From positions 206,894 through 270,893 of the forward strand of contig CAVTBL010000004.1 of the NCBI GenBank assembly GCA_963732945.1: a DNA stretch of 64,000 nucleotides. The letters are read 5' to 3'. Numbering within the stretch: position 1 is the first letter of the stretch; each line of letters opens with the position of its first letter. Below are positions 36,331 to 57,329 of this stretch, one piece after another. This DNA is from an uncultured Chloroflexia bacterium. GTDB lineage: Bacteria; Chloroflexota; Dehalococcoidia; DSTF01; WHTK01. A model generated the notes under the pieces. That model made no database searches and was not told the origin of the DNA. It saw nothing but the letters and a program-made list of their open reading frames with translations. The translations under genes and the position numbers were made by a program.

Positions 36331-36485
36331 TCAAACCAACGGAGGGGCCTGCCGGATGGGTGCCCGCAAGGGTTGTATCGCGCGATCGCTGCAGCCGAAG
36401 AACGCAACGTTATCTCAATCTTCTAACGCTGCTGGTGAGGCGTCCGGAGTCGGATCCGTGAGAGCATGGGAAGAGATTGTGAGCA

Positions 36486-36827
36486 TTGCCACAATCTGAA
36501 GACCACGAGGACTCCGGTCACAACGACAATGCTGCGTTGAGCGCCGATAATGACTCGAGGGAATTTATGAGCGAACGACAGAAACCGCGCCGCAGGCGCA
36601 ACGGATTCATGGACGGCCAGGATCAGGTCTTTTCGCTGAGCAGTATCTACCGCACCTCGATCCTGGGCAGCGATCGGTCGGGCGACATGGCGCGCCCCGG
36701 CCACGCTGAGGTCGACCCGATAGCATGGCCGGAGCCCGGCGAGGACCTCGACGACTCCGAGCTGAGCGACTACGAGCGCCGTCAGGCTATCGCGCGGGAG
36801 CGCTGGCGCCGCGAGGGCCGCGCCTGA
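36486..36827 (+). CDS. hypothetical acidic protein upstream of hemA
   Basis: 113-aa ORF ending 2 nt before hemA; low-complexity, weak. Confidence 0.3.
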   Translation: MPQSEDHEDSGHNDNAALSADNDSREFMSERQKPRRRRNGFMDGQDQVFSLSSIYRTSILGSDRSGDMARPGHAEVDPIAWPEPGEDLDDSELSDYERRQAIARERWRREGRA

Positions 36828-36829
36828 CA

Positions 36830-38068: not shown

Positions 38069-38125
38069 CCTATCTGACACGTCCCCGGCATAGGCCCGGC
38101 CACGCAGCGATGCTAAGCTTCGACT

Positions 38126-38995: not shown

Positions 38996-40278
38996 GTCGC
39001 GTAACCGCACGCTCCCACGCCATCTTCGAGGAGGCGCAGCGCTACCTCCCCGGCGGCGTCAACAGCCCAGTGCGCTCCTTCCGCGGCGTCGGCGGCGACC
39101 CCGTCGTCGTGGCGTCTGGCGCCGGGCCGCGCATCACCGACGTCGATGGCAACGCCTACATCGATTACTGCGGCTCCTGGGGCCCGCTGGTCCTCGGACA
39201 CGCGCACGCCGCCGTCGTCGAAGCCGTGAGCAGCGCCGCCAGCCGCGGTCTGACCTTCGGCGCCGCCACCGAGGCCGAGCTCGAGCTGGCGCGCCTGGTC
39301 TGCGAGGCCGTGCCGTCGATCGAGATGGTGCGCTGCGTCAGCTCCGGCACCGAGGCGACAATGTCGGCGCTCCGTCTGGCTCGCGCCTTCACCGGACGCA
39401 GCAAGATCGTCAAGTTCGAGGGCTGCTACCACGGCCACGCCGACGGGCTGCTGGTGCAGGCCGGCTCCGGCGTCGCGACCCTGTCGCTGCCCGATAGCGC
39501 CGGCGTGCCGCCCTCCTACGCCGCCGAGACGCTGGTCGCGCCCTACAACGACGTTGCGGCGATCGATGCGCTGTTCGAGCAGCGCCGCGACGAGATCGCC
39601 GCCGTGATCGTCGAGCCCGTCGCCGCCAACATGGGGGTCGTGCCGCCCGCACCGGGCTTCCTGCAGCACCTGCGCGATCTTTGCACCGCGTCCGGGGCGC
39701 TGCTGATCTTCGACGAGGTGATCACGGGCTTCCGGGTCGGTCTCGGCGGTTACCAGGCGTCGTGCGGCGTCCTGCCGGACATCACCTGCCTCGGCAAGGT
39801 GATCGGCGGCGGCATGCCGGTCGGTGCCTACGGCGGCCGCCGCGACATCATGCAGCTGATCGCGCCGCTGGGGCCCGTCTACCAGGCCGGTACGCTCTCG
39901 GGCAACCCGCTGGCCATGGCCGCAGGACTCGCGACGCTGCGGGAGCTGTCGCGCCCCGGCGTCTACGAAGCCCTCGAAGCAAAGGGCGCGCGCCTCGAGG
40001 CCGGCCTGCGCGCCGCGCTCAACCGCCACGAGGTCCCGGCGCAGGTCAACCGCGTCGGCTCGCTGATGACGCTGTTCTTCACGGACGCCCCGGTTACGGA
40101 CTACGCCAGCGCGCGCAAGTGCGACACCGAACGCTACGCTCGCTTCTTCCACGCCCTGCTCGACGCCGGCGTCTACTTCCCGCCGTCGCAGTTCGAGGCC
40201 GCCTTCGTCTCGCTGGCGCACAGCGACGCCGACATCGACGCGACAATCGATGCGGTGGACGCGGCGCTGTCTGCCTGA
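38992..40278 (+). CDS. hemL: glutamate-1-semialdehyde 2,1-aminomutase
   Basis: class III aminotransferase, HemL-like throughout. Confidence 0.9.
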
Positions 40279-40284
40279 GTTCCG

Positions 40285-40761
40285 ATGGCGCGCTGGCAGG
40301 ACGTCGTCGATGCTGAACCCGAGTTCGCCGCCGAGGTGCGCAAGCGCTTCGACGCGCACCGGCACAAGACGATGGCGACGATTCGCGCCGACGGCTCGCC
40401 GCGGATTAGCGGCATCGAAGTGACGTTCTCGGACGGCGACGTCTGGATCGGCAGCATGACCGGCGCACGCAAGGCCGCCGACCTGCGCCGCGATCCGCGT
40501 CTCGCCCTGCACTGCGCCTCCGAGGACCCGCCCGAGGACCCGACGGCCTGGACCGGAGACGCCAAGCTCGCGGGTCGCGCCGAGCTGGTCGAAGACCCGC
40601 AGCGCCTGGCATCGATGGGCGAAGGCGGCGACGGTTCCGGCGACCTGTTCCGTATCGATGTCAACGAGGTCGTCCTCACCCGCGTCGGCGCGCCGGCCGA
40701 CCACCTCGTGATCGAGACCTGGCGCGAAGGCCGTGGCCTCAGCCGCATCGAGCGCCGCTAA
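40285..40761 (+). CDS. pyridoxamine 5'-phosphate oxidase family protein (F420-dependent PPOX class likely)
   Basis: split-barrel PPOX-like motifs. Confidence 0.7.
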   Translation: MARWQDVVDAEPEFAAEVRKRFDAHRHKTMATIRADGSPRISGIEVTFSDGDVWIGSMTGARKAADLRRDPRLALHCASEDPPEDPTAWTGDAKLAGRAELVEDPQRLASMGEGGDGSGDLFRIDVNEVVLTRVGAPADHLVIETWREGRGLSRIERR

Positions 40762-40892
40762 CCTCCTGACTCCGTTGGCGGCGCTTCTTCTAGCGTTCGG
40801 CCCTTCCCGAAGCGACGTGACCTTGTTCCGCGTCGGCGCGCGTTCTATACTTCGCTCCAGTACGTTTAATTGATAAACTGGGTGAGCGTCTA

Positions 40893-42023
40893 ATGAAAGT
40901 CACCTGTGCTCAGAACGACCTCGCACGCGGCCTCGGCATCGTAGGGCGCGCGGTAGCTGCCCGTAGCCCGCTGCCGATAACGGCCAACGTGCTCATCGCC
41001 AGCGACGAGGGGCGCCTCAAGCTCTCCGCCACAAATCTGGAGATCACGATCAGCTGCTGGCTCGACGCCGACTTCGAGGAGGACGGCGCCATCACCGTCC
41101 CCGCTCGCCTGCTCAGCGACTTCGTCGGCACGCTGCCCAACGACCGCATTTCGATGACCGTCTCCCCGCGCTCGCGCCAGGTGAAGCTCGAATGCGCCCG
41201 CAACGAGGCCTCGATCGGCGGCCTCGACGCCGACGACTTCCCGCCGCCGCCGGTCGTCAAGGACGGCATCGACGTACAGATCGACGCCAAGGCGCTGCGT
41301 CAGGCGATCGCCCAGACCGTGTTCGCCGCCGCCACCGACGACTCTCGGCCCGTGCTTACCGGCGTCGACACCAAGTTCGACGGCAAGACGCTGACCCTCG
41401 CTGCATCGGACGGCTTCCGCCTCTCGGTCTACAAGCTCACGCTCGACGAGTCGGTCGAAGGCACGGAGATCGTCGTGCCCGCAAAGGCGCTGGCGGAGTT
41501 GAGCCGGCTGCTCGGCGAAGAAGACGGTCCGATTACGCTGCGCACCAACGCCGCGAAGTCGCAGGTCCTGTTCCGGCTGCAGAACGCGGAGATGATAGCC
41601 CAGCTCATCCAGGGCACATTCCCCAACTTCAATCAGCTCATCCCGGCCAGCTACACCAGCAAGGCCGTTGCCGAGGTTGGCGAGTTCCTGCGCGAGACGC
41701 GCACCGCCTCCGTATTCGCCCGCGACGGCTCCGGTATCGTCCGGCTCGTCGTTTCGCCCGGCGAAGGCGCCGCCATGGGCAAGGTCGTAATCTCGGCTCG
41801 CGCCGAAGAGGTTGGCGACAACGAGGGCGAGATCGACGCGGCCGTCGAGGGCGAGGGCGTGAAGATCGCGTTCAACGGCAAGTACCTGCAGGACGTCCTG
41901 CAGGCCCTCGAAGGCGGTCAGCTGGCGATGGAGACGACAGGCCCCAGCAGCCAGGGCGTCTTCAAAACGGTCGGCGACGAGAACTACGTCCACGTCATCA
42001 TGCCGATGTTCGTGCAATGGTGA
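40893..42023 (+). CDS. dnaN: DNA polymerase III beta sliding clamp
   Basis: three-domain clamp; C-terminus ...VIMPMFVQW-stop. Not adjacent to dnaA in this window. Confidence 0.9.
   Translation: MKVTCAQNDLARGLGIVGRAVAARSPLPITANVLIASDEGRLKLSATNLEITISCWLDADFEEDGAITVPARLLSDFVGTLPNDRISMTVSPRSRQVKLECARNEASIGGLDADDFPPPPVVKDGIDVQIDAKALRQAIAQTVFAAATDDSRPVLTGVDTKFDGKTLTLAASDGFRLSVYKLTLDESVEGTEIVVPAKALAELSRLLGEEDGPITLRTNAAKSQVLFRLQNAEMIAQLIQGTFPNFNQLIPASYTSKAVAEVGEFLRETRTASVFARDGSGIVRLVVSPGEGAAMGKVVISARAEEVGDNEGEIDAAVEGEGVKIAFNGKYLQDVLQALEGGQLAMETTGPSSQGVFKTVGDENYVHVIMPMFVQW
42003..42023 (+). repeat. dnaN 3'-end core (copy 1 of 3): CCGATGTTCGTGCAATGGTGA
   Basis: identical 21-nt cores differ only at three synonymous third positions among copies. 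Confidence 0.6.
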
Positions 42024-42618
42024 GTACAGGCGTTCCGTGCCGCTTGGAGCTATCTCTCTTCCGCTAGACAGCACCTTGTCAAATAGAGTTTCATCGACAC
42101 GAGTTGTTTCAATCTCGGGTAGGCAGCCTCCGCCCTGTTCAGGGCTTATCGCGGTTGGTTACCGCTCTTCGCAGAGTGCGGCATGACGTGGCGGCCGCGT
42201 CAGAGCGTTCGAATCGTCCCGCGCCAAAATGGTGCGCCGTCGCCGCGCTACTCGATCTGTGGCGAGGCGACATAAGAGCGGGCGTCTGCCGTTGTTCGCG
42301 GCCAGACGGCTCGTCATTAGTTGGGCTGAGCGCCCAGGGTTGGCGCCGCGTATTTCCGCCGCGCAGGCTCCACCGGCGATGGTTGAGTGTTTCGCTCGCT
42401 AACATCCATCAACATTCTTTTGAGAGCGCCTGTAGGCCCTCATCGACCGCCCAGAGGGTTCATGAATTTCAACAGAAGATACTCGGCGTGTGTTAGGGTA
42501 AGGGTAATGTCGTGAGCATCCACCGCGACGTTTCCACCCTGCCTCTGATGGAGGCAGCGCAAGTTTCGGACTGACTCAGGCCCTTCGGTGCTGCGCTTCC
42601 GGTATCTGTGATTACGCG

Positions 42619-43989
42619 ATGCCGGAGGTACTTTTGCTTTCCCCCTTTAGAGGTCGAGCCCGCAAACCGGCTTCGTTGACTCCTCTCAATTCCCTAGAAC
42701 TGGTTCATAGCGACGCCTCGGTGATTCCGATCCTCCAAACCACAGGCTTGGGGGTAAGGAAGCTCGAATGGCGCGGCCCTGAGCGTTTCGGATCCGAAGA
42801 CAATCGGCGCCTTCGGATCGCAATCGTGAGCCCGGAAGTAGGGGCGGGCGCCGGTGTGCCGCATTACTGGCTGGCACTGGCAAAGGTGCTCTCAATGAAG
42901 CACGAGTTGCATGTCTTCACTGCGAAGACCGATCGCGAAGCTGTCGACGGCGTCAGCTTTCACACGATCCCCATCGTGGCCGCCGGCTGGTTCCTCAGCC
43001 ATATGACCTTCTATCTCGTAGCAAGAGCCCGGTTCCTGTTTCACAGGCTGAGTTTCCAGAAGCCTTTCGACGTGGTGCTCGGAGTGGGTGCGCTGACGCC
43101 CTTTGCGGATGTAACGACTGTTCACTTCGTCCAGGCCCGAGAGATCGAGTTGCAGCGCCAGGGACTGATCCCTCGTCCGCGTCCTCTGGCCGGCCTGGCG
43201 GCATTCGACTACGCGCTGTACAGCCGCACGATGGCCTGGTTAGGCGCACGCTTCTACCGGGATACGAAGGCATCGATCGTCGCGATCTCTCAGTCGGTGA
43301 AGCGGGACATAGCACTGTTCGAAGGCGCGAACCCGGCAGCGATCTCGGTCGTTCCTAATGGCGTCGACGTCGTGCGGTTCAGTCCGGCCAATCGAGAGCG
43401 CTTTCGCCGTGAGACGAGAGAGTCTCTTGGCCTCGCCGATACCGATGTTGCCGTACTCTTCGTCGGCAACTCGTGGGGCCGCAAAGGCTTACGTACTGCC
43501 ATCGAGGCGATTAATGGTCCGGGTCAGAGCAACGTTCGGCTCATCGTGGTAGGCGATGGCGATCCGCCCTCGTTCGTGCAGACGCTACCGGCAGAGCTGG
43601 CTCAGCGCATCATCTTTGTCGGACCGAAGAGTGCCGATGTGGAGCGCTACTACGCCGCGTCTGACATCTTCCTCCTCCCGACGCTGTATGAGCCCTTCGG
43701 CCTCGTGATTCTCGAAGCGCTTGCGAGCGGCTTGCCGTCTATTTTCAGCGCATGTGCAGGCGCCGCCGAATGGCTGGAGGACGGCGTCGATGCATTGTTC
43801 TTACGCGATCCTGCCGACGGCGAGGAGGCCAGGATGGCTTTGCGAAGCGTGATTTCGAGCGCGGAGTTCGCTGCGCGACTCTCTGAGAATGGCCGGCTGG
43901 CCGCCGAAAGCCTCCAATGGGGCAATGTCGGATGGCAGCTCATCGAAACTGCGGCAGCTCGTAAGCGCACGCTCGCGGCCAGCGCGTAG
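42619..43989 (+). CDS. GT4-family glycosyltransferase
   Basis: EPFGLVILEALASGLPSI motif; lower GC; N-terminal start uncertain. Confidence 0.75.
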   Translation: MPEVLLLSPFRGRARKPASLTPLNSLELVHSDASVIPILQTTGLGVRKLEWRGPERFGSEDNRRLRIAIVSPEVGAGAGVPHYWLALAKVLSMKHELHVFTAKTDREAVDGVSFHTIPIVAAGWFLSHMTFYLVARARFLFHRLSFQKPFDVVLGVGALTPFADVTTVHFVQAREIELQRQGLIPRPRPLAGLAAFDYALYSRTMAWLGARFYRDTKASIVAISQSVKRDIALFEGANPAAISVVPNGVDVVRFSPANRERFRRETRESLGLADTDVAVLFVGNSWGRKGLRTAIEAINGPGQSNVRLIVVGDGDPPSFVQTLPAELAQRIIFVGPKSADVERYYAASDIFLLPTLYEPFGLVILEALASGLPSIFSACAGAAEWLEDGVDALFLRDPADGEEARMALRSVISSAEFAARLSENGRLAAESLQWGNVGWQLIETAAARKRTLAASA

Positions 43990-43992
43990 CAT

Positions 43993-46035
43993 ATGCCACG
44001 AGACCTTCCCCTGAGCAACGGCCACCTGTTGGTCACGTTCGACTCAGACTACGCGCTGAGTGACATCTACTTCCCGCACGTGGGAACAGAAAACCACGCC
44101 TATCGAAGGCACTCCAGGCTCGGCGTCTGGGTGGACGGAGAGTTCGCCTGGCTGCGCGATCCCGGTTGGGAGCTTTCGCTTCGTTACGCCGATGATTCTC
44201 TCGTTACAAATGTTGAAGCCACGAATCGGCGCCTCGGCGTAGTCCTTACGATCGAAGACGCCGTTGACTTCGACCAGGATGTATTGCTGAGGCGGTTCAC
44301 CGCGCTTAGCCTGGCGGGCCATTCGGTCGACGTGCGCCTCTACGTTCATCTGGACTTCGCCCTTGGCGGTAATACAGTCGGAGACACCGTGTTCTTCCAC
44401 CCGGAGTACCGGTCGATCGTCGCGTATAAGAACCAGCACTACCTGCTGCTCGGTGGTCGCACTGAAACCCGAGACCACCTCGACGGTTGGACAACAGGAC
44501 AAAAGCAAAGCTGGCGAGACGCCGAAGACGGTGCCCTGGAAGGATTGCCCATAGCCTTCGGCTCTGTCGATTGCGTTGGTGAGCTGAGGCTGGGCCAGGT
44601 TGGCACAGATGCGCCCACAGTTGCGCATGCATGGATCGCTGCCGGAGCCAGCCTTGAGGACGTGGGCAAGCTGAGTCAGATCGTCCTGACCAGGGGACCG
44701 GATAGCCTCATCGACCGCACGTACAAGTACTGGCAGGCATGGGTTAAGAAGGACACAGACGTTCATCCCGGACTGGGCGCTCTGCCCGAACCGATACAGA
44801 AGCTATACCGCCGCAGCCTGCTAATCGCGAATGCCCAAACGGACTACGGCGGAGCGATCATCGCATCACCCGACTCGGAGATTTCGGACGCCTTCAGTCC
44901 CCGAGGCGCTTCAGGCCCACCCATCACCGACATCTTCCAGGGCCACGAAAGCTACGCCTACTCATGGCCGAGAGACGGTTCGCTGGTGGCGATGGCGCTC
45001 GACAACGCCGGCTATGCTTCCGTGGCCCGCGCCTACATCAGCTTCTGCAAGGAAACCGCTATCCACCGCAACAAGGACGGCGAAGAACAGGCCTACATGC
45101 TCCAGAAGTACCTGTCCAACGGTGCTGTCGCGAGCAACGTCATCGCGTGGATCGATGACGATGGCGCGGCGCGCCTCCCTATCCAGGAGGATGAGACAGC
45201 GCTGGTACTGATCGCGATTCGGAACCACTATGCGCAGACCAGCGACTGGGGATTTGTCTCGCCTCTGTATCACCCGATGATCGTCAGCATGGCGAATTTT
45301 CTCGTCGACTTTCGTGACCCAGACACCGGCCTGCCTTGCCCGAGCCAGGACCTCTGGGAGGAGCGACAGGGAATGCACGCCTTCTCAATCGCCACGACCT
45401 GGCGCGCACTCCGAGATACTGCGTATTTCACTGAGCTGTTCGCCGAGCCGGATCAGACCAACAAGTACCTGCAGGCGGCGGCGGACCTCAAAGCGGCAAC
45501 GGAACGGTATCTCTTCGACCCTGAGTCGGGTCGATTCGCGCGCAGCCTGTTCGTCGATCGAGACGGCGTGCTACGCCGAGACATGATTGTAGACGCAAGT
45601 GTCTTTGCACTGTCCTACTTCGGCATGTTCGAGCCAGACGATCCCCGTATAGCTGCCACTATGGAAGCGATCGAGGCGACGCTCGTTTGTCCTGAAGGCC
45701 ATGCCGGGTTGGCGCGTTTCAAGGGCGATACCTATCACCTCAGACAGAGCGGTGCCGACCTGAACGTCCCCGGCAATCCCTGGTTCATCTGCACGCTGTG
45801 GCTGGCGCAGTATCAGTTGCAGCGCGCCAGGGTAGCTGCTGACCTTGAAGCACCCATGGAGATTCTCTGCCAGGTCGAGAGGTCCGCACTCCCCAGCGGT
45901 GTCCTTGCGGAGCAGATCGATGCGGTCTCAGGGGAGCCGGCGGGAGCAACCCCCTTAACGTGGTCGCACGCTACGGTAATCCTGACTGTCCTCGAATATC
46001 TGAAGGCAAAGGAACGAATCTGCGGTTCCGACTAG
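43993..46035 (+). CDS. glycoside hydrolase family 15 (glucoamylase/glucodextranase/trehalase-like)
   Basis: GH15 (alpha/alpha)6 catalytic motifs including SWPRDGS. Confidence 0.8.
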   Translation: MPRDLPLSNGHLLVTFDSDYALSDIYFPHVGTENHAYRRHSRLGVWVDGEFAWLRDPGWELSLRYADDSLVTNVEATNRRLGVVLTIEDAVDFDQDVLLRRFTALSLAGHSVDVRLYVHLDFALGGNTVGDTVFFHPEYRSIVAYKNQHYLLLGGRTETRDHLDGWTTGQKQSWRDAEDGALEGLPIAFGSVDCVGELRLGQVGTDAPTVAHAWIAAGASLEDVGKLSQIVLTRGPDSLIDRTYKYWQAWVKKDTDVHPGLGALPEPIQKLYRRSLLIANAQTDYGGAIIASPDSEISDAFSPRGASGPPITDIFQGHESYAYSWPRDGSLVAMALDNAGYASVARAYISFCKETAIHRNKDGEEQAYMLQKYLSNGAVASNVIAWIDDDGAARLPIQEDETALVLIAIRNHYAQTSDWGFVSPLYHPMIVSMANFLVDFRDPDTGLPCPSQDLWEERQGMHAFSIATTWRALRDTAYFTELFAEPDQTNKYLQAAADLKAATERYLFDPESGRFARSLFVDRDGVLRRDMIVDASVFALSYFGMFEPDDPRIAATMEAIEATLVCPEGHAGLARFKGDTYHLRQSGADLNVPGNPWFICTLWLAQYQLQRARVAADLEAPMEILCQVERSALPSGVLAEQIDAVSGEPAGATPLTWSHATVILTVLEYLKAKERICGSD

Positions 46036-46071
46036 TGCGCAAATCTCGGTACATCGGGCGTTGCAGGAGTC

Positions 46072-47755
46072 ATGGCTAGTCACGCCTCCCCCTGGTGGAA
46101 AGACGCGATCTTCTACGAGATTTTCCCGCGAAGCTTCATGGACGCCGACGGCGATGGAGTTGGCGACCTCCGGGGCATTCTCTCCAGGCTGGATTACCTC
46201 AAGGACCTCGGCGTCGATGCACTGTGGCTCACACCCATCTTCCAATCTCCGTGGAAGGATTCAGGCTACGACGTCGCCGACTATGAACGCATCGATCCTT
46301 CAATGGGAACCATGGCGGACTTTCGAGAACTCCTCAAAGAGGCGCATCGTCGGAATCTGCGGATTATCATCGACCTCGTCATCAACCACACGTCGGACGA
46401 GCACTCCTGGTTCCGCGAGTCGCGCTCGTCCCCGAACAACCCCAAGCGCGACTTCTACATTTGGCGACCGGCCAGAGACGGCGCCCAACCGAACAACTGG
46501 AAATCGCTGGTCAAGGGCTCGGTATGGGAGTGGGATGAGGTCTCCGGCGAGTATTACTTGCATCTCTTTTCGAAGTACCAGCCGGACCTCAATTGGGAGA
46601 ACCCTAAAGTCAAGGCAGCGGTCTTTGAGATGATGCGAGGCTGGCTGGCCATGGGGGTCGATGGCTTCCGGATGGACGTGATCAATTGCCTCATGAAACC
46701 GGCCGGTCTTCCGGATGCTCAGCGCAACCCCGGCGACGATGAGCCGTACGTTCTGGACCGTGCTCTGTACGCCGACAACCCGGGGATGCACGAGTTGCTC
46801 CAAGAAATGCGCCGAGACGTGTTGGAGCCGTTTGGCGCCTGCTCGATCGGCGAGGTCCACTTCAACACGAAGGAGGCGGCCGGCCTCTACGTTGAGCCGG
46901 CTCGGAGGGAGCTGGACCTGATCTTCCAGACCGATCTGCTCTTCAACCGTACCGGCCCCGCGTTTATCGGCAGAAGCATCGCGGCATGGGACATCGCCTT
47001 GCGGGGGCGAGGCTGGAACGCCTTTTGTCTCGGTAATCACGATACACCGCGTCAGGTTTCGGTCCTCGGAGACGATGGCCAATATCGCTCTGAGTCGGCC
47101 AAGGCGCTGGCGACACTGGCTTTGACGGCTCCGGGTTCGCCGTTCATCTTCCAGGGTGACGAACTCGGCATGACCAACGTCTCTTTCGAGCGTCTGGAAG
47201 ATTATCGCGACATCGAGATGAAGAGCTTCTTCGAGGAAAAAGTGGCGGCAGGCGCTGACCCAACCGACGCACTGAATTTTCTGCGACCAAGATCCCGCGA
47301 TAACTCTCGGACACCCATGCAGTGGTCGGCTGCACGAAGTGCAGGATTCACGACAGGCACTCCGTGGATAGAAGCCAATCCCAACTACCGCGGAATCAAC
47401 GTGGAAGAGCAGGAGGGCAACCCGAGTTCAGTCTTGCAGTTCTATCGACGCTTGGTGGCCTTGCGGAAGGAACACGCTTGCCTGTCCCTTGGCGACTACC
47501 GGCCCATTGCCAGCGGCCACGAGGACTTGCTTGCGTATCGGCGCTCTTTACCTGAGGAAACCTTGCTCATTCTCGTGAACCTGTCGCCCCGCTCCATAAG
47601 TTTCAGCACTGACGTGCCGGCAAGCGGGGTCCAGCTTATCGGCAACTATCCCGCGGCGGACGAGATTCAGGATCATGTCCGGCCCGTGGGAGTTGCGCAT
47701 CGTGCGCTGCGCTTGGCCAGAGGACAAGCTCGCCAACACTCCTGGAGTCTACTGA
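46072..47755 (+). CDS. GH13 alpha-glucosidase (oligo-1,6-glucosidase/TreS-like), with an apparent +1 frameshift near 47670
   Basis: WWKDAIFYEIFPRSF...DGDGVGDL...GFRMDV...catalytic motifs. The C-terminus ...MSGPWELRIVR...GVY-stop is in the +1 frame; the ORF-track tail after ~47680 is out-of-frame junk. Confidence 0.8.
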
Positions 47756-48231
47756 TCGCGAGAGGGAGACCGCTGCTAGCCCTGGCAACGTGTGATGATG
47801 GTAGAGCGAGCTGGTCTGCCGCACGACGCTGGCTCATCCCTATCGTGTGTATTCACGACGCCTATCTATTTTGTCTGCGAAGGCTTAGAATAGAGCCACA
47901 AGAACCCCTCAGTTCTCAGACCTGCCAGCTTCACAAAAGCCGTCTCCTCTGTCCTCTTCGGGCAATCTTGATTCGCTACGAATCAGAGGAAGACACGCCG
48001 TCCACGTTCCCACTGCCTCAGTCGCGAACCTCGTGATGCAGACCACGCGTCTGCTTTTCCATGGTTCGTCTCCGCTGTCGCGTTCTCGACAAGGGTGCCG
48101 TTTCTTCCGATGGGACCACCGTTAGGCCATTCGGGTCACACCGCTACTGGTGCCTCGGATGATTCGTCAGTGGCTTAACACCGTTTCGTTGCTGAAACGC
48201 AAAGTGCCAGCGCGACAGAGAGAGGATCGAA

Positions 48232-48480
48232 ATGACTCGAGGTTCCGTAACCAAGCTCGTAACTACCTTCGGCTCGAATTGGGGCCGAATCCGAGGGGAC
48301 TCTGCATCGAAGGACATCTTCTTCAACACCGCGTCCCTTGAAGAGCCCGCCGAATTCTCATCGCTAAAGGTCGGCCTGGCTGTTGATTTCGACGAACTGC
48401 CGGACTTCATCAACGGGAGCCATGCCGAGAACGTGGTCCTGACGTCCTCGGAATCGAGCGACGGCGCGAGTGAGTCATGA
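48232..48480 (+). CDS. divergent cold-shock-domain-like protein
   Basis: CSD-like pattern GSVTKLV...GSNWGRIRGD...KDIFFNTASLE...LKVGLAVDFD...AENVVL; low GC; isolated in a ~1-kb otherwise non-coding stretch. Confidence 0.5.
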   Translation: MTRGSVTKLVTTFGSNWGRIRGDSASKDIFFNTASLEEPAEFSSLKVGLAVDFDELPDFINGSHAENVVLTSSESSDGASES

Positions 48481-48809
48481 TGTCCCCCTTGTGTTATCTG
48501 GGCCTGCATTCCTGGCCGCGACTGCACGGCATCTGGCATGAAGCAGTCATGGAGCCGGCTTCAGCTACCTGCACTCATTGTGGCAAACCACTCGCCAGCG
48601 TCTGGCGGACCGTATATCCGCAAGATGGCAGCAGATGTCGTCGCGGCGCGTGCCAGATTCACGGCTGAATGGAGTCCAGGTGCCCCAATATTCCCGGAGC
48701 CGAATGGCTCCCGAAGCTGGCGACTTTCAGCACTGCTGGGGAACACTTCGCTATGCGTAACGTGATGTTAGTAGTGTGTAGACAAGCTCGTAATCAGAGG
48801 AACTGACTA

Positions 48810-49076
48810 ATGAGCATCATCGCTTGGATCGTCGTAGGTCTTATCTCAGGTGTCATAGCGAAAGCGTTAATGCCCGGCCGCGAACCAGGTGGAATAATCT
48901 TCACCATCGTTCTTGGCATCGCTGGTGCCTTTGTCGGTGGCTTTCTGGCCATTGCCCTCGGTATCAGTGACGGCGTCAACAACTTCGACCTCGGCACGAT
49001 CGTGCTCGCGGTGATCGGGGCGATGCTGCTTCTTGTCGTCTACCGCACGATCACCAGCGGCAGACTGCACGCCTGA
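48810..49076 (+). CDS. GlsB/YeaQ/YmgE-family stress-response membrane protein
   Basis: two-TM Gly-rich small protein; GAGGA SD; followed by a T7 tract. Confidence 0.7.
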   Translation: MSIIAWIVVGLISGVIAKALMPGREPGGIIFTIVLGIAGAFVGGFLAIALGISDGVNNFDLGTIVLAVIGAMLLLVVYRTITSGRLHA

Positions 49077-49612
49077 CAACGCCAGCGATGCAGGGCTTTT
49101 TTTCCTGCCAGAGCTAGCTCGTAGAACGCCCGCAGCGCGGGCGAAAGAAGGACATTTTGAACACGTGCCCATTCCGAACAGAAGCCTGTACTCTTAGCAC
49201 TCCCTGCTCGAAGTGCCGCGAAGTTGCCACCAGAACTGCTCACGTTCTCGTGCGCTTCCAGGCACAGGGTACGCACGGGGCGAGTCACAGCCATCAGGTG
49301 CACACGCGATACCAGCCAAAGCACGGCGGTTACTGGCAGCGGAAAGCAGCCTGAGGTTGCTACCGGTGAGCCCCGATAAGCCGCGCCGCCGCGCCGCAAG
49401 CCTGCCTAGCACAATGCGAGCGTGCGAAATCACGCCGGGGCAAGGTGATCAGGCTGAAGCCAGTCACTGACGCAGGACAGCGCCCCGCGCAATTCAGGTC
49501 GGCCGTACTTCAAGCGAGGACCTATCGAGTCCAGGCCCGCAAAGACGAGTTCACGATTTTATTGCCGCCACCAAGCTAAATGGCACGTTCGCGATTTGGC
49601 TGCCGTTGAAAA

Positions 49613-49639
49613 TATATTCCGATGTTCGTCCAGTGGTGA
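49613..49639 (+). repeat. dnaN 3'-end core copy 2 (TATATTCCGATGTTCGTCCAGTGGTGA), non-coding
   Basis: an in-frame stop lies 3 codons upstream, so it is not a gene; encodes YIPMFVQW-stop. Confidence 0.6.
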
Positions 49640-49941
49640 TAAACTTCGGCACTTCAGCGGGCAAAATCCCCCTGATAGTGGCCCTCTCGCGCGTCGCTTC
49701 AACAGTGATCTGAAGCGCTTCCAGCACCTGCGACCACTCTTCCGCACCTGCGTTTTCAAGCCAGGTTTCGATGTGCTGGGCTATGGCGATGCCGTACCGC
49801 TTGTCTACGCGCGCCCCAGCGCCGGACCATTCCGATAGCCCGCCTCCTCACTTCCCGCAATGGCAAGGGCCAAGGCTGTGGCGGTCGTTGTCATTGCGGC
49901 CGTTATGTAGCGGCAGCGAAACCAGGGGCGTAACGGGGCGG

Positions 49942-50931
49942 TTACCTCGCGAGTACGGACAGCCTCGCGGGTGGTTCGTGCGGGCGCAGCTCTTCGAGGT
50001 GGATGCGCAGGAAGTCCAGCAGGTGGCGCCGTTTCTCCGCGCCGCGCACCCCGTTTGCCGCGCCTTCGCTCTCAGGCGGGGCGAGATGTGGCGCCACGCG
50101 CGAGGCACGCTCGTAGACGCGGCGCCAGGTCTTCTTCACCGCGTCGGGGGAGACACCCAGAGCCTGGGCAATCTCAGCGTCCGATTCGTTGAGCAGCGCC
50201 AGCTCCAGCACCCGTTGCTCTCCGGAGGAGAAGTGAATGCGCGGCTGCATTGGGTAAAAGAGGAACGAAAGCGGGTTCACCGCTGAAGGCTGCACGTCGT
50301 CCTTACGTAACAGCAAGAAGTAGGGCTTGAGCTCAAGGGATGCAACATTCGACGACTCGTCAGAAGCCGCGCCAAAGTAATCGACTATATGAAAGCCACC
50401 AGCCTTCATGTACTCGGCCGCCTGGAGGCCATAGACCTCCTGCATCGCGGTCTTGAGATGATAGCCTCCGTAGAAAAAGAAAAACGCTGTGTTGACTGCA
50501 AACATAACTTCCTGCGTCCGTGGGTGGGAGAGGTCGGGGTCCCTTAGGGCAAAGTGCAGCATGAGAAGGTGTAGGCCGCCGTGCGAGTTAGCTTCGCGAA
50601 TCTCCTTGTAGGACAGGACGGGCGAGTCCTCTGCTAAGGCGTCTTCGTAGAGTTTCGCTGAAAGACCTGGGTAAGGCTGTTTAAGGTAGTTCTCCGCGAA
50701 GTCTTCTCGAAGGAAGACGCTGGCGCCGACCATCTGAATAGCTTCGTGAGTTGGTAAGTCTGGGTCCTCTATTAGCGTGATGCGCATCGAATTGTTGGCC
50801 AGCAACGCTTTCCATAAGTCCACAAGATTGTTTCTCACAAACAAACTCGGCGCGAAGCCAGGGTGGAGCAAGGATCGGAAGGTCTCGAGGTCGGCGGGCG
50901 TAGCGAGGCGATAGCGCATGGTAGTTCTCAT
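49942..50931 (-). CDS. LuxR-family HTH regulator with uncharacterised N-terminal domain
   Basis: LuxR-type HTH (SSGEQRVLELALLNESDAEIAQALGVSPDAVKKTWRRVYER); low GC. Confidence 0.7.
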   Translation of the reverse strand: MRTTMRYRLATPADLETFRSLLHPGFAPSLFVRNNLVDLWKALLANNSMRITLIEDPDLPTHEAIQMVGASVFLREDFAENYLKQPYPGLSAKLYEDALAEDSPVLSYKEIREANSHGGLHLLMLHFALRDPDLSHPRTQEVMFAVNTAFFFFYGGYHLKTAMQEVYGLQAAEYMKAGGFHIVDYFGAASDESSNVASLELKPYFLLLRKDDVQPSAVNPLSFLFYPMQPRIHFSSGEQRVLELALLNESDAEIAQALGVSPDAVKKTWRRVYERASRVAPHLAPPESEGAANGVRGAEKRRHLLDFLRIHLEELRPHEPPARLSVLAR

Positions 50932-51178
50932 AATCCCGCGGAGGAATCAAAGACAGTAGGACTGTCACCTTTTAGGGGATTGTTGCCCGCTGACCGGGAA
51001 ACTAAGTTATCACAAGTATAGGCTTCTAGTTCACAACTTGAACGTTGCCGAATTGCGCAGACAACCGAATGTGACTGGACCGGAACGAATTAATTCCTGT
51101 ACAAGCGGCAGAGATCGTATGCGCGCGGAGCAGCAATGAGAATCTGGAAAGTCTGTGCGGTATCGGAGTTAGGCAAGA

Positions 51179-53377
51179 ATGCGCACTAACAAGGCGGCGA
51201 GCCTGGTCGTCCTGCTTGTCTTTGCCTTGGCTGTTGGCGCGAAAACGCAGATGGTCTTCGGCTCCAGCAGCTTCGGTGGCGAGACCGGAGGCATTGGTGG
51301 CGGGTGTGGTACTGACTTCACAAGTAAGAGTATCCCGAATGTCCAAGCGCTAAGCTGGTCAGATTTCATCGGCTCGCCAGACGGCCTAGCTGGCGGCTCT
51401 GCGGCGATGTCGTTTGTTTGGACCTCTTCCCCAGGACGGCAACTCAAGTTAGACATGACTGCCACGGGAGCTGAAGGCTGCGGAGCCAACGCCGCTTACT
51501 CTGCAAATTTATTTGTCGACCCTGGCACGCAGGTTACACTGGCGGCCACCACTCAGAATGCTCATGTCAGGATCCTGCCGCTCCAAAATCAGGCGAATGT
51601 CGTCCAAGACGTGTGCCCAATTCCACAGTGCGACCACGAAAGCCTTACCCAGACCGTCACCTTGAGCGGCACCTACCGGCTTGAGGCCGTAGAAGCTCCG
51701 GGGTGGGACGAAACTGCCAGCGTGCACTTGGTCCTGTCCCTGGGGAACACCGCACCGCTTGTCTCCATTGGTGATGCCGTGGATTCTGAGGGCGACAGCG
51801 GAAGCAAGTTCTTCGCGTTCCCGGTCATCCTCTCCGCTCCCCTTTCAACAAGCGCCTCCGTCAGCTTCGGGACCCAGGACCTCACCGCTACTGTCGCCGA
51901 CAACGATTACAACGCCGCCTTTGGCAGCGTCAGCTTCGCACCCGGCGAAGTGTCGAAGGTAATCTCAATTGCTGTGATTGGAGACACGAAAAACGAAGCC
52001 AACGAGACTTTTCGCGTAATCCTAGGCGATCCGTCGGCTAATATTCTCATAGGCAGTTCAGCTGCCATGGGAACGATCATCAACGACGATGTCGCTGTCG
52101 ATTTCGACTGGACGGTGCCAGATCGCTTCGGGCTGGACCAGAATGGTGACCAGATCATCGATTACTACCCCCCGGACGGGCACCTGGTTATCTCGCCCGA
52201 CGGTTGGCGAGTAGACTTCACCTTCAGTGTGGGCGGAAGTTGTCCCAGTGGTCTAAGCTCGAAATGGACCGTGAATGGACTCGCCATCGCACCAAGCGAT
52301 CCTGAAATCCTGCTCAGCAATGCCGCGGCTTGTAAGTTTAGCTATCGCTTTCCGAGGGAAGATACGTTCCAAGTTAAGCTTGAGCTCACAGACAGCACCA
52401 ATGCGGTCGTAGGGCAGCAGCAGAAGGCGGTTATAGTCCAGGATTGGCTCATCGTCTCGATAGGCGATTCTGTGGCTTCCGGCGAAGGTAATCCCGACGC
52501 ACCAGGGCCGATCTGGGAGGACCGCCAGTGCCACCGTACATCCGCAGCCGGACCGGCCCAGGCGGCGATGAAAATCGAGCGCGCCGATCCTAAGACGTCT
52601 GTGACCTTCATACACCTTGCGTGCTCCGGCGCCTCGATAAACGAAGGTCTTCTCCGCCGTTACGTGGGCCAAGAACCAGGCAGGCCACTCTTGCCACAGG
52701 TACAAGCTATGGACTTGCTAGTTGGCAATCGGGAGGTCGATGCCGTTCTCATTTCGATCGGTGCCAACGATGTGGAGTTCAGCAATATCGTAAAGAATTG
52801 TTTCCTTCGTACGGACTGTAACGATGCTTCGAAGCCCAACTCAATGGCCGCCTTTTTTGACAGCAAATTGCCTACGCTTCCTGCTGCCTATGACGCATTG
52901 GGTTTAAAGCTCAGGTCTGGTCTGAGGCATCCACTGAAGCCTGGACGGACTTACATCACTGAATATTTCGATCCGACCAGGGACGAGTCCGGCGCTTTCT
53001 GCGATAACAAGATCCTGGAGGAGGCCTTCGACTTTCCCCGTCTGGGCATTACTGCGACAGAGGGACAATGGGCTTCCACTGAGATGCTCGTGCGTTTGAA
53101 CCAGACTGTGGCCGCGGCAGCATCGCGCAACGACTGGCACTTCGTTAACGGAATCTACGACGCATTCCGAACTCATGGCTACTGTGCGATTGACTCTCAG
53201 CGCTGGATCGTCCAGGCAACGGAATCGCTACGGAATCAGCACAACAAGGACGGCACAATACATCCCAATCGTCCTGGGCATGTTGAGTACGGAGCGCGCC
53301 TAACAGCGGCACTTACAGCGGACTTCTATGCCGGCGACGATTTCAGTCGGCCGCGAGCGCCCATCACCGGCCCGTAG
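51179..53377 (+). CDS. secreted Calx-beta domain / SGNH(GDSL) hydrolase protein
   Basis: signal peptide; Calx-beta consensus (VDSEGDSGSKFFAFPV...VSFGTQDLTATVADNDYNAAFGSVSFAPGE...IINDD); GDSL block IVSIGDSVASGEGN. Confidence 0.75.
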   Translation: MRTNKAASLVVLLVFALAVGAKTQMVFGSSSFGGETGGIGGGCGTDFTSKSIPNVQALSWSDFIGSPDGLAGGSAAMSFVWTSSPGRQLKLDMTATGAEGCGANAAYSANLFVDPGTQVTLAATTQNAHVRILPLQNQANVVQDVCPIPQCDHESLTQTVTLSGTYRLEAVEAPGWDETASVHLVLSLGNTAPLVSIGDAVDSEGDSGSKFFAFPVILSAPLSTSASVSFGTQDLTATVADNDYNAAFGSVSFAPGEVSKVISIAVIGDTKNEANETFRVILGDPSANILIGSSAAMGTIINDDVAVDFDWTVPDRFGLDQNGDQIIDYYPPDGHLVISPDGWRVDFTFSVGGSCPSGLSSKWTVNGLAIAPSDPEILLSNAAACKFSYRFPREDTFQVKLELTDSTNAVVGQQQKAVIVQDWLIVSIGDSVASGEGNPDAPGPIWEDRQCHRTSAAGPAQAAMKIERADPKTSVTFIHLACSGASINEGLLRRYVGQEPGRPLLPQVQAMDLLVGNREVDAVLISIGANDVEFSNIVKNCFLRTDCNDASKPNSMAAFFDSKLPTLPAAYDALGLKLRSGLRHPLKPGRTYITEYFDPTRDESGAFCDNKILEEAFDFPRLGITATEGQWASTEMLVRLNQTVAAAASRNDWHFVNGIYDAFRTHGYCAIDSQRWIVQATESLRNQHNKDGTIHPNRPGHVEYGARLTAALTADFYAGDDFSRPRAPITGP

Positions 53378-53533
53378 TCCGCCTGCAGTGCATGGACGGT
53401 TACGATTAAGGTTCAAAAGTCTTTGTTGTCCGATTGGGTGCACCGGCGTTACATGGCTCGGAAATTTTCGAATGCAACGTAGCGGAACTGAGCCGTCCTG
53501 GCGAATGGAATTGAATCAACGTCCTTATTGCAC

Positions 53534-53560
53534 GTATATTCCGATGTTTGTTCAATGGTG
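53534..53560 (+). repeat. dnaN 3'-end core copy 3 (TATATTCCGATGTTTGTTCAATGGTGA)
   Basis: shares TATATTCCGATGTT with copy 2; lies in an AT-rich spacer. Confidence 0.6.
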
Positions 53561-53649
53561 AGACGTTTTGAATCTTATTTTTACGAATCGCCTCATTCTC
53601 GAGTCTACGACCACGTGAACACGCACGGGGTCGTCTTCCTGCGAGACGC

Positions 53650-55110
53650 CTATTCGGACTCGTCCAGGGGCGCTGCGGCCGCGATTCTACGGAGCATTCC
53701 GCTGAAAATCACGGAATGCAGCGGGAATAGACCGAACCAGTAGGCGAGGCCGGCCACGCCCACGGGATCGAAGATCGCGGTCTGCCTGAGGCTGCAGCGA
53801 TTCGCGCCCTGGGGTTCGATCTCGAACTGGAGCCAGGCTCGGCCAGGCAACCGCATCTCGGCGGCGAAGCGGACGAGCCGTGCTGGTTCGATGGCCTCGA
53901 CGCGCCAGAAGTCGACCGTGTCGCCGACGGCGAGGTGTCGAGGATCGCGGCGTCCGCGGCGCATGCCGGCACCGCCGACAGCGAGGTCGAGCAGGCCTCG
54001 GAGGCGCCAGAGCCAGTTACCGTAGTACCAACCGGTGTCGCCACCGATACGCTCGACGACGCCGAACGCGGCATCGGCGGAGCATTCAATCGGGGCGACG
54101 CGCGAGTCCACCAGGCGTGAACCGAAAGCATCGCCGCCCCAGCCGCGAGTTACGCCGGCCGATGCGAGAGCGTCCGACCAGCGCGTCTGGGCGAATTCCC
54201 GATCTTCGTTTCTCAGGGCGCGCGCTACGGCTTCGCGGACGCCCATGGGATGCACGCCGAAGAGCTCCTGTGCTCGTGCGTCGTTTGCTACCGTCTCGTG
54301 CGGCAGGCTCTCGATCAGGATGCGACCAACGCGGGCGTAGAGCGGCGTCACGAGGCCCAACCAGAGGCTGGAGAGCCGTGGCGTGAGCACGGGCACAGGG
54401 ATCATCAGCCGTCGCAGGCCTCGCTGGTTGCCGTACTCCAGCATGAGGTCCTTGAAGGAGACCCGCTCCGCTCCGCCGATCTCGAATATCTCGGAGCCGG
54501 TGATCGGCACGTCGATGGCTCTGCGCAGGTAGGCGATGACGTCCTCGATGGCGATTGGTTGAGTACGAATGCGGACCCAGCGCGGCATCACCATGATCGG
54601 CAGCCGGTCGATAAGCGAGCGGATCATCTCGAAAGAGAGGCTGCCGGATCCCAGAATGACCGAAGCGCGAAACTCGATAGTCGGCACGCCGGAGTCGCGG
54701 AAGATGCGACCGACTTCCTGCCGGCTGGCGAGATGCGGCGAGAGGTTGTCGCCGGTACCGAGACCACCGAGATAAATGAGCCTGCTTACGCCGGCCGCCT
54801 TCGCTGCAGCGGCGAAGTTGGACGCGACTTCGCGATCGCGAGTCACGAAGTCAGCGGTCGCGGCCATGGAGTGAACCAGGTAATAGGCGTGCGTGACCCC
54901 CACCATCGCGGCTGCGAGGTCGTCGGACTTCATGACGTCGCCTTTCACAACCTCGGTCGATGGGCTGAGATTGGTGTGCAGGCGCTTCGGATCGCGCACC
55001 AGGCAGCGAACGCGGCAGCCATCGTCCTGAAGTGCCTGCAACAGGCGCCCGCCGACGTAGCCGGTGGCGCCGGTTAGCAGGACAAGAGGCTGAGACGTTT
55101 CGGGCTGCAT
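53650..55110 (-). CDS. YbjT-like NAD(P)-binding (NmrA/SDR-like) protein with C-terminal DUF2867
   Basis: Rossmann motif LLTGATGYVGG. ATG at 55110 overlaps the heliorhodopsin stop (ATGA). Confidence 0.75.
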   Translation of the reverse strand: MQPETSQPLVLLTGATGYVGGRLLQALQDDGCRVRCLVRDPKRLHTNLSPSTEVVKGDVMKSDDLAAAMVGVTHAYYLVHSMAATADFVTRDREVASNFAAAAKAAGVSRLIYLGGLGTGDNLSPHLASRQEVGRIFRDSGVPTIEFRASVILGSGSLSFEMIRSLIDRLPIMVMPRWVRIRTQPIAIEDVIAYLRRAIDVPITGSEIFEIGGAERVSFKDLMLEYGNQRGLRRLMIPVPVLTPRLSSLWLGLVTPLYARVGRILIESLPHETVANDARAQELFGVHPMGVREAVARALRNEDREFAQTRWSDALASAGVTRGWGGDAFGSRLVDSRVAPIECSADAAFGVVERIGGDTGWYYGNWLWRLRGLLDLAVGGAGMRRGRRDPRHLAVGDTVDFWRVEAIEPARLVRFAAEMRLPGRAWLQFEIEPQGANRCSLRQTAIFDPVGVAGLAYWFGLFPLHSVIFSGMLRRIAAAAPLDESE

Positions 55111-57288: not shown

Positions 57289-57329
57289 GGTCTGTTGACT
57301 AAGTTTTGCAAAAGCTAGAGAATCGAGCG

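Follow-up and report, generated by a model that had tools for sequence, protein, structure and literature searches.

The last codons of dnaN as a probable integration site of large serine recombinase islands in Chloroflexota

The last seven codons of dnaN occur three times within the 64 kb window (the whole stretch of DNA analysed here), and these repeats are very probably attachment-site junctions left by two successive island integrations, catalysed by a large serine recombinase (LSR), into the end of that gene. Serial integration of elements carrying replacement gene ends had been proposed from the window's letters by a sequence-only reading, and support for it comes from a synteny break at dnaN, a pair of loci (L031 and L044) differing by one repeat-bounded insert, arrays elsewhere, and site polymorphism that begins at a proline wobble position. 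The sliding-clamp gene, universal and essential, would thus be added to the few protein-coding genes known as dedicated docking sites of mobile islands, with one highly conserved attB common to a whole LSR clade (more than 100 members sampled).

Three repeats and the two modules between them

The target gene dnaN (DNA polymerase III beta clamp; 40893-42023, plus strand; three beta-clamp domains by Pfam) closes a conserved hemA-HAD-hemL-(PNPOx)-dnaN block. A pattern search for CCGATGTTYGTNCARTGGTGA returned exactly three matches in the 64 kb window, all on the plus strand, against a chance expectation of 0 and with no match in any of 100 dinucleotide-preserving shuffles; no further copy was found in the window at five or fewer mismatches, including to the right of copy 3. 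The triple repeat reported by the sequence-only reading is thus borne out. Copy 1 (42003-42023) contains the true dnaN stop and forms an attL-type junction. Copy 2 (49619-49639) is a hybrid junction joining the right end of one module, A, to the left end of another, B, and is non-genic on the plus strand. Copy 3 (53541-53561, plus strand) is an attR-type junction and the outermost copy detectable; it lies one base from its earlier placement at 53540-53560, while the positions given for the other two stand.

All three copies encode PMFVQW-stop and differ only in the third bases of the F, V and Q codons. These synonymous differences had been recognised from the sequence, as had the non-genic nature of copies 2 and 3 and the stop three codons upstream of copy 2. 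The same reading held that the flanks share nothing beyond TATATT, which proved incorrect: copies 2 and 3 have 5' flanks that share 82% identity over 34 nt, and this flank is part of a conserved arm present in other genomes too. The codons TTT GTT CAA of copy 3 are atypical of the host (joint frequency 0.0002) and do not fit copy 3 as the original dnaN end; from them, the array may be older or longer than two modules. No recombinase remnant was found after copy 3. The terminal CAA of copy 1 is atypical as well, this codon accounting for 0 of the 14 Gln codons in the rest of dnaN. Because an independent short-read contig (L067) matches window positions 49740-53940 at 99.98% identity, the junction of module B, copy 3 and the right flank is no assembly artefact. 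The contig is colinear with the window and contains no junction indicative of a circular form of module B, a candidate that we rejected.

Composition changes with the repeats. As the earlier reading had claimed, GC is lower between the copies (0.57-0.60, vs. 0.67-0.69 just upstream), and GC3 is 0.64-0.71 in the cargo genes compared to 0.85-0.92 in the hem-dnaN block. Beyond copy 3, GC is back to about 0.64 in the right flank, which carries a DUF2867/NmrA-like gene (53650-55239, minus strand; Pfam). Exact-sequence look-up of the window's DnaN and DUF2867 proteins returned no record. At fine scale, a GC-skew switch appeared near 50 kb; none was evident at 2-kb scale, and it was dropped.

Module A (42024-49618) comprises 7.6 kb of lower-GC cargo (GC 0.59-0.60, GC3 0.69-0.71) with a GT4 gene (42619-43989), GH15 (43993-46035), GH13 (46072-48036), a weak CSD-like gene (48232-48480) and Transgly_assoc (48810-49076). 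Module B (49640-53540) is 3.9 kb long (GC 0.57, GC3 0.64-0.71) and encodes a 329-aa protein with a C-terminal HTH (49942-50931, minus strand) and a Calx-beta/SGNH hydrolase (51179-53377). Pfam confirmed the GT4, GH15, GH13, Transgly_assoc (GlsB) and Calx-beta/SGNH assignments made from the translations alone. Two others were upheld only in part: the divergent cold-shock-like gene is present, but its cold-shock match falls below the Pfam cut-off, and the putative LuxR regulator of module B showed only weak C-terminal HTH matches (E 0.002-0.06). The cargo pair of module B also occurs at another locus (L068, about 72% nucleotide identity), where no repeat, dnaN or LSR lies within 10 kb; this cargo was consequently rejected as a marker of the element.

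Each module lies between repeat copies that have P arms, the element-side halves of the att sites. The arm of module A (49574-49618, plus strand) resembles those of L013, L008 c2, L005, L063 and L066, and its minus-strand reading is a conserved extension of about 22 codons to a recombinase ORF (EYIFNGSQIANVPFSLVAAIKS-stop). The arm of module B (53496-53540) is 82% identical to that of L031.

The modules differ in what is left of a recombinase gene, the LSR being truncated in B and absent in A. An HMM of the LSR family, built from homologs of 500-550 aa, identified a C-terminal remnant of approximately the last 60 residues at 49623-49787 on the minus strand (E 1e-7; model positions 457-515 of 517), the sole LSR-HMM match in the 64 kb window. 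This remnant runs antisense through copy 2 (..FITTGRTS..) in a stop-to-stop ORF at 49554-49847. By BLASTP it matched full-length LSRs over their last ~60 residues (E down to 3.6e-14), and by tblastx it matched dnaN-flanking remnants at three other loci (L006, L008 and L019). The search of the gaps with recombinase HMMs that had been suggested thus succeeded in one form: general Pfam profiles on six-frame translations missed the remnant, which only the family-specific model detected. The earlier statement that no recombinase is recognisable accordingly stands for intact genes, of which the 64 kb window has none, and fails for the ~60-aa LSR remnant after copy 2. No match to Phage_integrase (tyrosine recombinase) was found in the modules, including their non-coding parts in six frames.

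Within module A, neither the LSR HMM nor Pfam on six-frame translations revealed a recombinase or a remnant of one. The segments 42024-42618, 48037-48809 and 49077-49941 gave nothing with six-frame Pfam at E 0.1. No LSR remnant was detected at the left end of module A: compared with other junctions by tblastx and blastn-short, it shared only the repeat, plus about 9 nt with L028. The suggestion that the elements are decayed is therefore supported for module B by its remnant, and plausible for module A, which retains none. Both modules look immobile on their own and, judging from their sequences, could at most be moved in trans by a related recombinase.

The recombinase family and the synteny break in relatives

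In related Chloroflexota/Dehalococcoidia genomes, an intact LSR of ~517 aa is convergent with dnaN and overlaps its stop codon. One such opposite-strand ORF (L003) carries Resolvase (1e-17) and Zn_ribbon_recom domains and is internally deleted; its homologs are ~517-aa proteins with Resolvase, Recombinase and Zn_ribbon domains. LSRs of this Resolvase, Recombinase and zinc ribbon type were found at L003, L011, L012, L013, L050/51 and L066, along with about 120 homologs, and are related to the solved structure 9iu2 (500 aa, named only 'Integrase'), the TP901-1 integrase and SPbeta YokA. At L011 and L012, which share the hem-dnaN synteny of the window, the intact LSR overlaps dnaN by 26 nt. In the commonest architecture, the LSR gene closes with codons (..VTIE[RQ]TSA-stop) that are antisense to the end of dnaN. 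Of the 120 best homologs, 107 have the dnaN end translated out of frame in the LSR C-terminus, counted as an exact 6-aa translation of a PMFVQW-stop 21-mer in another frame within the last 70 residues; in 81 of those 107 the frame is antisense.

Neighbours of the dnaN-linked LSRs include small ORFs, transposases, relaxase or tyrosine recombinases. The Pfam families listed for these neighbourhoods, which cover some of the genes, include no second small resolvase, ParB or Mom. Neither a recombination directionality factor nor a circular junction was identified. A phage origin was considered for an IMG/VR contig (L066), where an intact LSR runs across an attP-like site, and was set aside; the contig is without recognisable phage structural genes.

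Conservation among relatives ends at the dnaN stop. Three loci (L008, L006 and L005) are 89-95% identical over 11.1 kb up to this codon and unrelated beyond it. Every closer relative of the window ceases to align at 42023-42027; the alignment of L014, for example, covers 34363-42023 and ends there. Within a single population, 22 contigs carry at least 17 unrelated sequences downstream of dnaN. L031 equals L044, from the same metagenome, plus a 2,344-bp insert between two repeat copies, and tandem repeat-bounded arrays also occur in L008, L013, L016 and L064. The comparison with relatives proposed earlier thus has a divided outcome: alignment does stop at the dnaN stop, but the window's right flank was seen in no close relative, and with it no empty site for the window genome. 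When both modules and the right flank were compared with 62 loci by tblastx, neither an empty site nor shared cargo emerged, the only matches being the LSR remnant and an unrelated histidine-kinase-like hit.

The same 22 contigs help to place the crossover. They show no polymorphism from -27 to +2; variation starts at repeat position 3 (the Pro wobble position) and continues at positions 9, 12 and 15 and in the stop codon. In a scan of six P-arm-plus-repeat sites, the dyad match between element arm and repeat peaked only at the CC of the Pro codon, with 10.2 of 22 matches (shuffles 7.2 +/- 0.4, maximum 8.7). Because these two independent lines agree, CC (window 42003-42004) is most likely the crossover dinucleotide, as far as sequence comparison can place it, in which case each element would replace the last 19 nt of dnaN.

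Integration model and competing explanations

We infer the order of events, as well as present-day mobility, as follows. The LSR would pair the attP of the element with attB, which comprises about 13 codons at the end of dnaN, and cut at the central dinucleotide, most likely CC, so that everything rightward would then be element-derived. Since this crossover leaves element DNA on the right, the element would have to carry a synonymous GATGTTYGTNCARTGGTGA to keep the clamp C-terminus; in this model the 19 nt to the right of CC in copy 1 would have been supplied by module A. The older dnaN end would be displaced to the far side of the island, and a second integration at either junction would give the order dnaN-copy 1-A-copy 2-B-copy 3. 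In the commonest architecture the LSR gene lies at the left edge of the island, convergent with dnaN. In the window, only ~60 C-terminal codons of this gene are left in module B and none in module A. Weighing against the model are the lack of an intact recombinase in the 64 kb window and of any remnant in module A, the right flank shared with no close relative, the host-atypical codons of copy 3, and the repeat-free occurrence of the module B cargo pair at L068.

Several features of the window could also be read as those of a single composite element that was assembled by accretion in another genome and then arrived, or was inherited, whole; copies 1 and 3 would be its ends and copy 2 a relic within it. 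The two modules are similar in GC (0.57-0.60), copies 2 and 3 have related P arms, and the tandem arrays seen in several genomes could move as blocks. However, the P arm of copy 2 resembles that of L013 and the P arm of copy 3 that of L031, which suggests different lineages, and A and B occur together in none of the 62 loci. Such an element would be indistinguishable from serial integration in place, and its mechanism identical; we consider it improbable. A change of enzyme is far less probable still. A tyrosine recombinase, in the classical manner of integration at the 3' end of tRNA or protein genes, or host XerCD acting at a dif-like site, could have inserted the islands, leaving the serine remnants incidental: a direct repeat of 21 bp is what tyrosine integrase targets typically show, and some dnaN-linked islands do contain tyrosine recombinase genes (L003 11078-13233, L012 8693-9700 and L013 13252-15212). 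Yet the gene overlapping the repeat in relatives is always a serine recombinase (L003, L007, L011, L012, L013, L050/51, L063, L065 and L066), in the great majority of sampled LSRs the repeat forms part of the coding sequence of the protein's own tail, and the six-frame Pfam searches of the window's non-coding parts gave no tyrosine recombinase remnant. The exchange boundary, moreover, falls sharply at one dinucleotide, the behaviour expected of serine recombinases.

Hardly credible, finally, is the view that the repeats arose when the dnaN end was locally duplicated or spread by gene conversion, or that they are a conserved regulatory or RNA motif over the stop codon. The motif is short, and its downstream copies keep the reading frame though non-genic, as this view might allow. 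Against it, synteny with relatives breaks off exactly at the motif, which is flanked by a conserved element arm with dyad symmetry and followed by recombinase remnants. Of the refutations foreseen by the sequence-only reading, a non-coding RNA and extended dnaN homology were looked for and not found. With no Rfam match in 40-56 kb and no tRNA or tmRNA in the window, a structured RNA, tRNA or tmRNA was rejected as the repeat unit; extended duplication of dnaN was likewise rejected, as alignment of the three copies with 100-nt flanks showed nothing dnaN-like upstream of copies 2 and 3.

Serial LSR-catalysed integration, the preferred reading, invites a bolder extension, which we regard as rather unlikely. 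The LSR ORF would span attP, so that integration would rewrite the recombinase itself: an excised or tandem LSR would bear a conserved, P-arm-encoded C-terminal extension of ~22 aa (..F[NRQ]xxQxxx[VI]PFxL..), while a copy integrated beside dnaN would end in ..TSA-stop. This could act as a switch of directionality or expression, and quasi-palindromic half-sites could allow two mirror-image architectures of the element. If true, the dnaN end would be a cassette-accumulating platform in Chloroflexota, with recombinase-less cargo of 2-8 kb shuffled in trans.

Known systems and significance

The literature searched, which is limited in coverage, holds no paper describing dnaN as an integration target, in agreement with the first impression from the sequence. 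Among known systems, the Dehalococcoides ssrA islands (DsiB) and SCCmec come closest. In Staphylococcus, the CcrAB LSRs insert SCCmec cargo into the 3' end of rlmH (orfX). Both SCCmec and the dnaN islands are thus LSR islands in the 3' end of a conserved protein-coding gene, with direct repeats and tandem or composite cassettes. SCCmec differs in its phylum and target and in its recombinases (CcrA and CcrB, or CcrC), which are encoded inside the element and not across the att site.

The comparison with SCCmec and CcrAB is also discussed in the description of the ssrA islands (McMurdie et al., 2011; PMC3146451). These are tandem islands downstream of the single-copy essential gene ssrA, with direct repeats of ~20 bp of its 3' end; beside attL, on the reverse strand, lies DsiB, a serine recombinase of ~520-540 aa whose ORF enters the target/att site (PMC3146451). 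Their integration module has six genes (DsiB, DsiA, RecF-like, ParB, Mom and tRNA-like), and islands without it were interpreted as cis-mobilisable or fixed (PMC3146451). The dnaN islands come from the same phylum and share the tandem arrangement, the 3'-end repeats, the reverse-strand LSR overlapping its target and the existence of islands without an integration module. The six-gene module was, however, not seen beside the dnaN-linked recombinases, whose likeness to DsiB is one of architecture. The ssrA target is also a tmRNA gene, whereas dnaN is protein-coding, and the replacement end is therefore limited to synonymous changes.

The phage LSRs (Bxb1, TP901-1, phiC31 and SPbeta SprA) have the same Resolvase, Recombinase and zinc ribbon set, and their att sites show a comparable imperfect dyad symmetry around a central dinucleotide. 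Bxb1 targets the 3' part of groEL1, an important gene. Unlike in these phages, the dnaN-linked recombinase ORF overlaps the att site and no directionality factor is recognised; the genes on the elements are metabolic, regulatory, defence-like or for a relaxase, with no clear structural module of a phage among them.

Integration at dnaN would explain why the genome and metagenome assemblies of these Chloroflexota break or diverge at this gene, and would make its end the place at which accessory and defence-like genes specific to a strain build up. It would also provide a natural series of related LSRs with predicted attB, attP and crossover, which may serve recombinase engineering. One 21-bp stretch would answer to three constraints, as clamp C-terminus, antisense recombinase C-terminus and predicted recombinase binding site, and this triple overlap offers an unusually clean case for the study of att-site evolution.

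The window modules also have a counterpart in the CIMEs and accretion arrays of streptococci, att-flanked segments without recombination genes that lie in tandem with, or derive from, autonomous elements. Streptococcal integrative systems use tyrosine integrases, in contrast to the LSR at dnaN, where mobilisation in trans is putative. A CIME-like state is seen here in modules A and B and in the 2.3 kb insert of L031.

Repeat copies and a recombinase remnant behind dnaN

The window most likely holds a two-module decayed array of large-serine-recombinase (LSR) islands inserted at the dnaN terminus, one case of a widespread dnaN-specific element family in Chloroflexota. The 21-mer CCGATGTTYGTNCARTGGTGA matched three times, always on the + strand, at 42003-42023, 49619-49639 and 53541-53561 (copies 1 to 3). 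No match arose in any of 100 dinucleotide-preserving shuffles of the window, and no further copy, including a fourth beyond copy 3, was found in the window with up to five mismatches allowed. The sequence-only reading had proposed these three copies; all stand as exact pattern matches, with the third lying one base further right than it had placed it. Copy 1 is the true terminus of a 376-aa protein (40893-42023) carrying all three beta-clamp domains by Pfam. As that reading had also stated, the copies vary at the Phe, Val and Gln wobble positions only, all encode PMFVQW-stop, and an in-frame stop lies three codons 5' of copy 2. The live dnaN end has CAA, a codon used for none of the 14 Gln residues in the body of the gene, which agrees with module A, the segment between copies 1 and 2 (42024-49618), as its supplier. 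The codons of copy 3 (TTT GTT CAA) are very atypical, having a joint frequency of 0.0002 under host core-gene usage. Its junction is not an assembly artefact, since a contig from a separate short-read assembly (L067) is 99.98% identical to window positions 49740-53940.

A hidden Markov model (HMM) built from LSR homologs of 500-550 aa was run on six frames of the 64-kb window. It gave one match, at 49554-49847 (- strand; E 1e-7; model positions 457-515 of 517), and in pairwise comparison with full-length recombinases this remnant aligned to their last ~60 residues, with E down to 3.6e-14. The remnant begins immediately after copy 2, with an antisense reading through that copy (..FITTGRTS..). 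Module B, between copies 2 and 3 (49640-53540), thus represents a decayed element from which ~90% of the recombinase gene is gone. No comparable LSR remnant follows copy 1 or copy 3 in the window, and module A holds no recombinase trace. Module A is a deletion derivative or else a cis-mobilisable segment lacking a recombinase, like the insert in soil contig L031 described below.

The dnaN terminus in related genomes and metagenomes

A one-genome-per-species scan returned ten Chloroflexota/Dehalococcoidia loci, and a metagenome scan added 49. Loci L008, L006 and L005 share 89-95% nucleotide identity over 11.1 kb, through the dnaN stop inclusive, and have nothing in common over the 8-10 kb after it. 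For all closer relatives of the window (75-87% nucleotide identity), the alignment ends at 42023-42027. In one soil metagenome, contig L031 equals contig L044 plus a 2,344-bp insert between two repeat copies; this segment encodes a luciferase-like monooxygenase and a DinB-like protein and no recombinase, and the arm preceding its distal copy is 82% identical to window positions 53507-53561. Given the synteny break at the stop, the LSR remnant and the L031/L044 pair, the serial integration into the dnaN 3' end that had been proposed from sequence is essentially correct. Neither the right flank nor the cargo of the window was found in any relative, and no empty site was seen for this genome.

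Arrays are present at L013, L064 and L008, the last with another PMFVQW-stop copy 7.9 kb beyond the dnaN end. At L005 an inverted, degenerate copy (PMFVPR-stop; 11619-11639, - strand) lies 490 nt after dnaN behind the same arm as the second copy of L008, pointing to an inversion or to an array that was rearranged. About half of the 49 metagenome contigs (L030-L062) start or stop inside dnaN, mostly in its C-terminal half, where assemblies break. Genes after the metagenome dnaN ends are diverse and often defence-like, including a Ser/Thr kinase, DUF3800, Schlafen AlbA_2 and an AAA_16-LuxR STAND protein; a separate look-up found a Z1/DUF4420/methylase set in L063. The latter contig also has a Replic_Relax (relaxase/replication) gene at 7738-9675 in a dnaN-type element with an intact recombinase, and some such elements may be mobilisable by conjugation.

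Recombinase family and putative crossover point

At locus L003, the dnaN stop is overlapped by an opposite-strand ORF, an LSR with an internal deletion that has both a Resolvase domain (1e-17) and a recombinase zinc ribbon. Among its 448 database homologs, the top ones are ~517 aa long with Resolvase, Recombinase and Zn_ribbon_recom domains, come from Chloroflexota wherever the source names an organism, and are related to solved large serine integrases. Most homologs terminate in ..[LF][VA]TIE[RQ]TSA, the antisense reading of ..IMPMFVQW-stop. An exact 6-aa out-of-frame translation of a PMFVQW-stop 21-mer occurs within the last 70 residues of 107 of the 120 best homologs (81 in the ..TIE[RQ]TSA antisense frame, 22 in either shifted frame of the same strand and 4 in other antisense frames). 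At L011 and L012, where the hem-dnaN synteny matches that of the window, intact recombinases of 517 and 516 aa are convergent with dnaN, with a 26-nt overlap.

The one repeat serves two mirror-image architectures, with the recombinase either proximal and convergent with dnaN or distal and co-directional. Recombinase genes are paired tail to tail across one repeat copy in L013 (10001-13047) and L065 (126-3224); the mirror-image arrangement was noted at these loci and at L064 (10001-11551). As the half-sites are quasi-palindromic, the recombinases of both architectures have a similar C-terminal peptide (F-I-T-x-x-x-S/T-S). Tyrosine recombinase genes also occur near the serine recombinase in dnaN-linked islands (L003 11078-13233, - strand; L012 8693-9700; L013 13252-15212), as adjacent pairs in L003 and L013, and may belong to a nested second element.

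A conserved P arm, the element-side att half, precedes the displaced copies in the window (copies 2 and 3), L031, L013, L008, L005, L063 and L066. A dyad-symmetry scan of arm against repeat at six such sites gave a single peak centred on repeat positions 1-2 (CC), with 10.2 of 22 positions complementary, as against 7.2 +/- 0.4 (maximum 8.7) in 500 arm shuffles. One sediment population contributed 22 contigs, and in these the 60 nt of dnaN leading up to the repeat are nearly invariant, with zero polymorphism from -27 to +2. Variation has a sharp onset at the Pro wobble (repeat position 3), coinciding with the dyad peak, and recurs at positions 9, 12 and 15 and in the stop codon; at least 17 unrelated sequences follow dnaN in these contigs. 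Both lines fit a putative crossover by a serine recombinase at the Pro-codon CC. Each incoming element would then supply the 19 nt right of CC, coding for the clamp's last residues, which would explain the synonymous differences between copies. Since the C-terminal residues of the beta-clamp line its protein-binding cleft, the replacement end must keep the peptide.

The recombinase ORF runs across its own att site. Where it adjoins dnaN, the ORF closes with ..TSA-stop; behind a P arm it instead continues for ~22 codons (..F[NRQ]xxQxxx[VI]PFxL..stop), in the window at 49574-49618 and 53496-53540, in L013 at ~2211-2280, in L008 at ~18967-19036, in L063 at 11550-11617 and in L066 at 6814-6920. 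Database proteins P0024, P0045 and P0054 have this long-form C-terminus.

Known islands, cargo and the right flank

Of the systems described so far, the closest are the ssrA-specific genomic islands of Dehalococcoides, which occur in tandem and have a 20-bp repeat of the tmRNA gene 3' end at their boundaries. Their serine recombinase, DsiB (~540 aa), is encoded on the reverse strand beside attL, with an overlap into the target; some of the islands are without integration modules (PMC3146451). The dnaN system has the same architecture, but its target is a protein-coding gene, the recombinase and clamp tails share bases on opposite strands, and no DsiA/ParB/Mom module was seen beside dnaN-linked recombinases. 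Among serine recombinases that target protein-gene 3' ends, the best-known case is SCCmec at rlmH. Full-text searches of the literature outside subscription journals turned up no account of dnaN as a natural integration target, and a 2026 Dehalogenimonas pangenome paper mentions only ssrA. Provisionally, the dnaN-specific family is apparently undescribed.

The modules are lower in GC, as the sequence-only reading had stated, at 0.57-0.60 between copies versus 0.67-0.69 immediately upstream, and GC3 drops too (cargo genes 0.64-0.71; hemA, HAD, hemL, PNPOx and dnaN 0.85-0.92). Pfam bore out the GT4, GH15, GH13, Transgly_assoc and Calx-beta/SGNH assignments. The proposed LuxR regulator gave weak HTH matches only, and the cold-shock-like gene gave a match, but one under threshold. 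The two cargo genes of module B are also paired in contig L068, with no repeat within the 10 kb covered. A 25-nt inverted repeat, 80% complementary (49654-49678 and 50969-50993), brackets a 329-aa HTH gene (49942-50931, - strand) and could represent operators or mark the two ends of a small insertion.

Right of copy 3, GC is ~0.64 and GC3 0.71-0.86. Under a CC crossover the copy-3 bases stay with the DNA on their right, so this flank may be a still older island, its far boundary gone or outside the window. A DUF2867/NmrA-like gene adjoins a repeat copy both here (53650-55239, - strand) and in the unrelated IMG/VR contig L066 (7122-8564). The proteins are 42% identical; their positions relative to the repeat differ, and the shared neighbour may be coincidence. 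Further along, a heliorhodopsin gene (55110-55895, - strand) lies near a MerR-type regulator with a B12-binding domain (57306-58205), a CarH-like light sensor architecture, and the pair possibly forms a light-response cluster.
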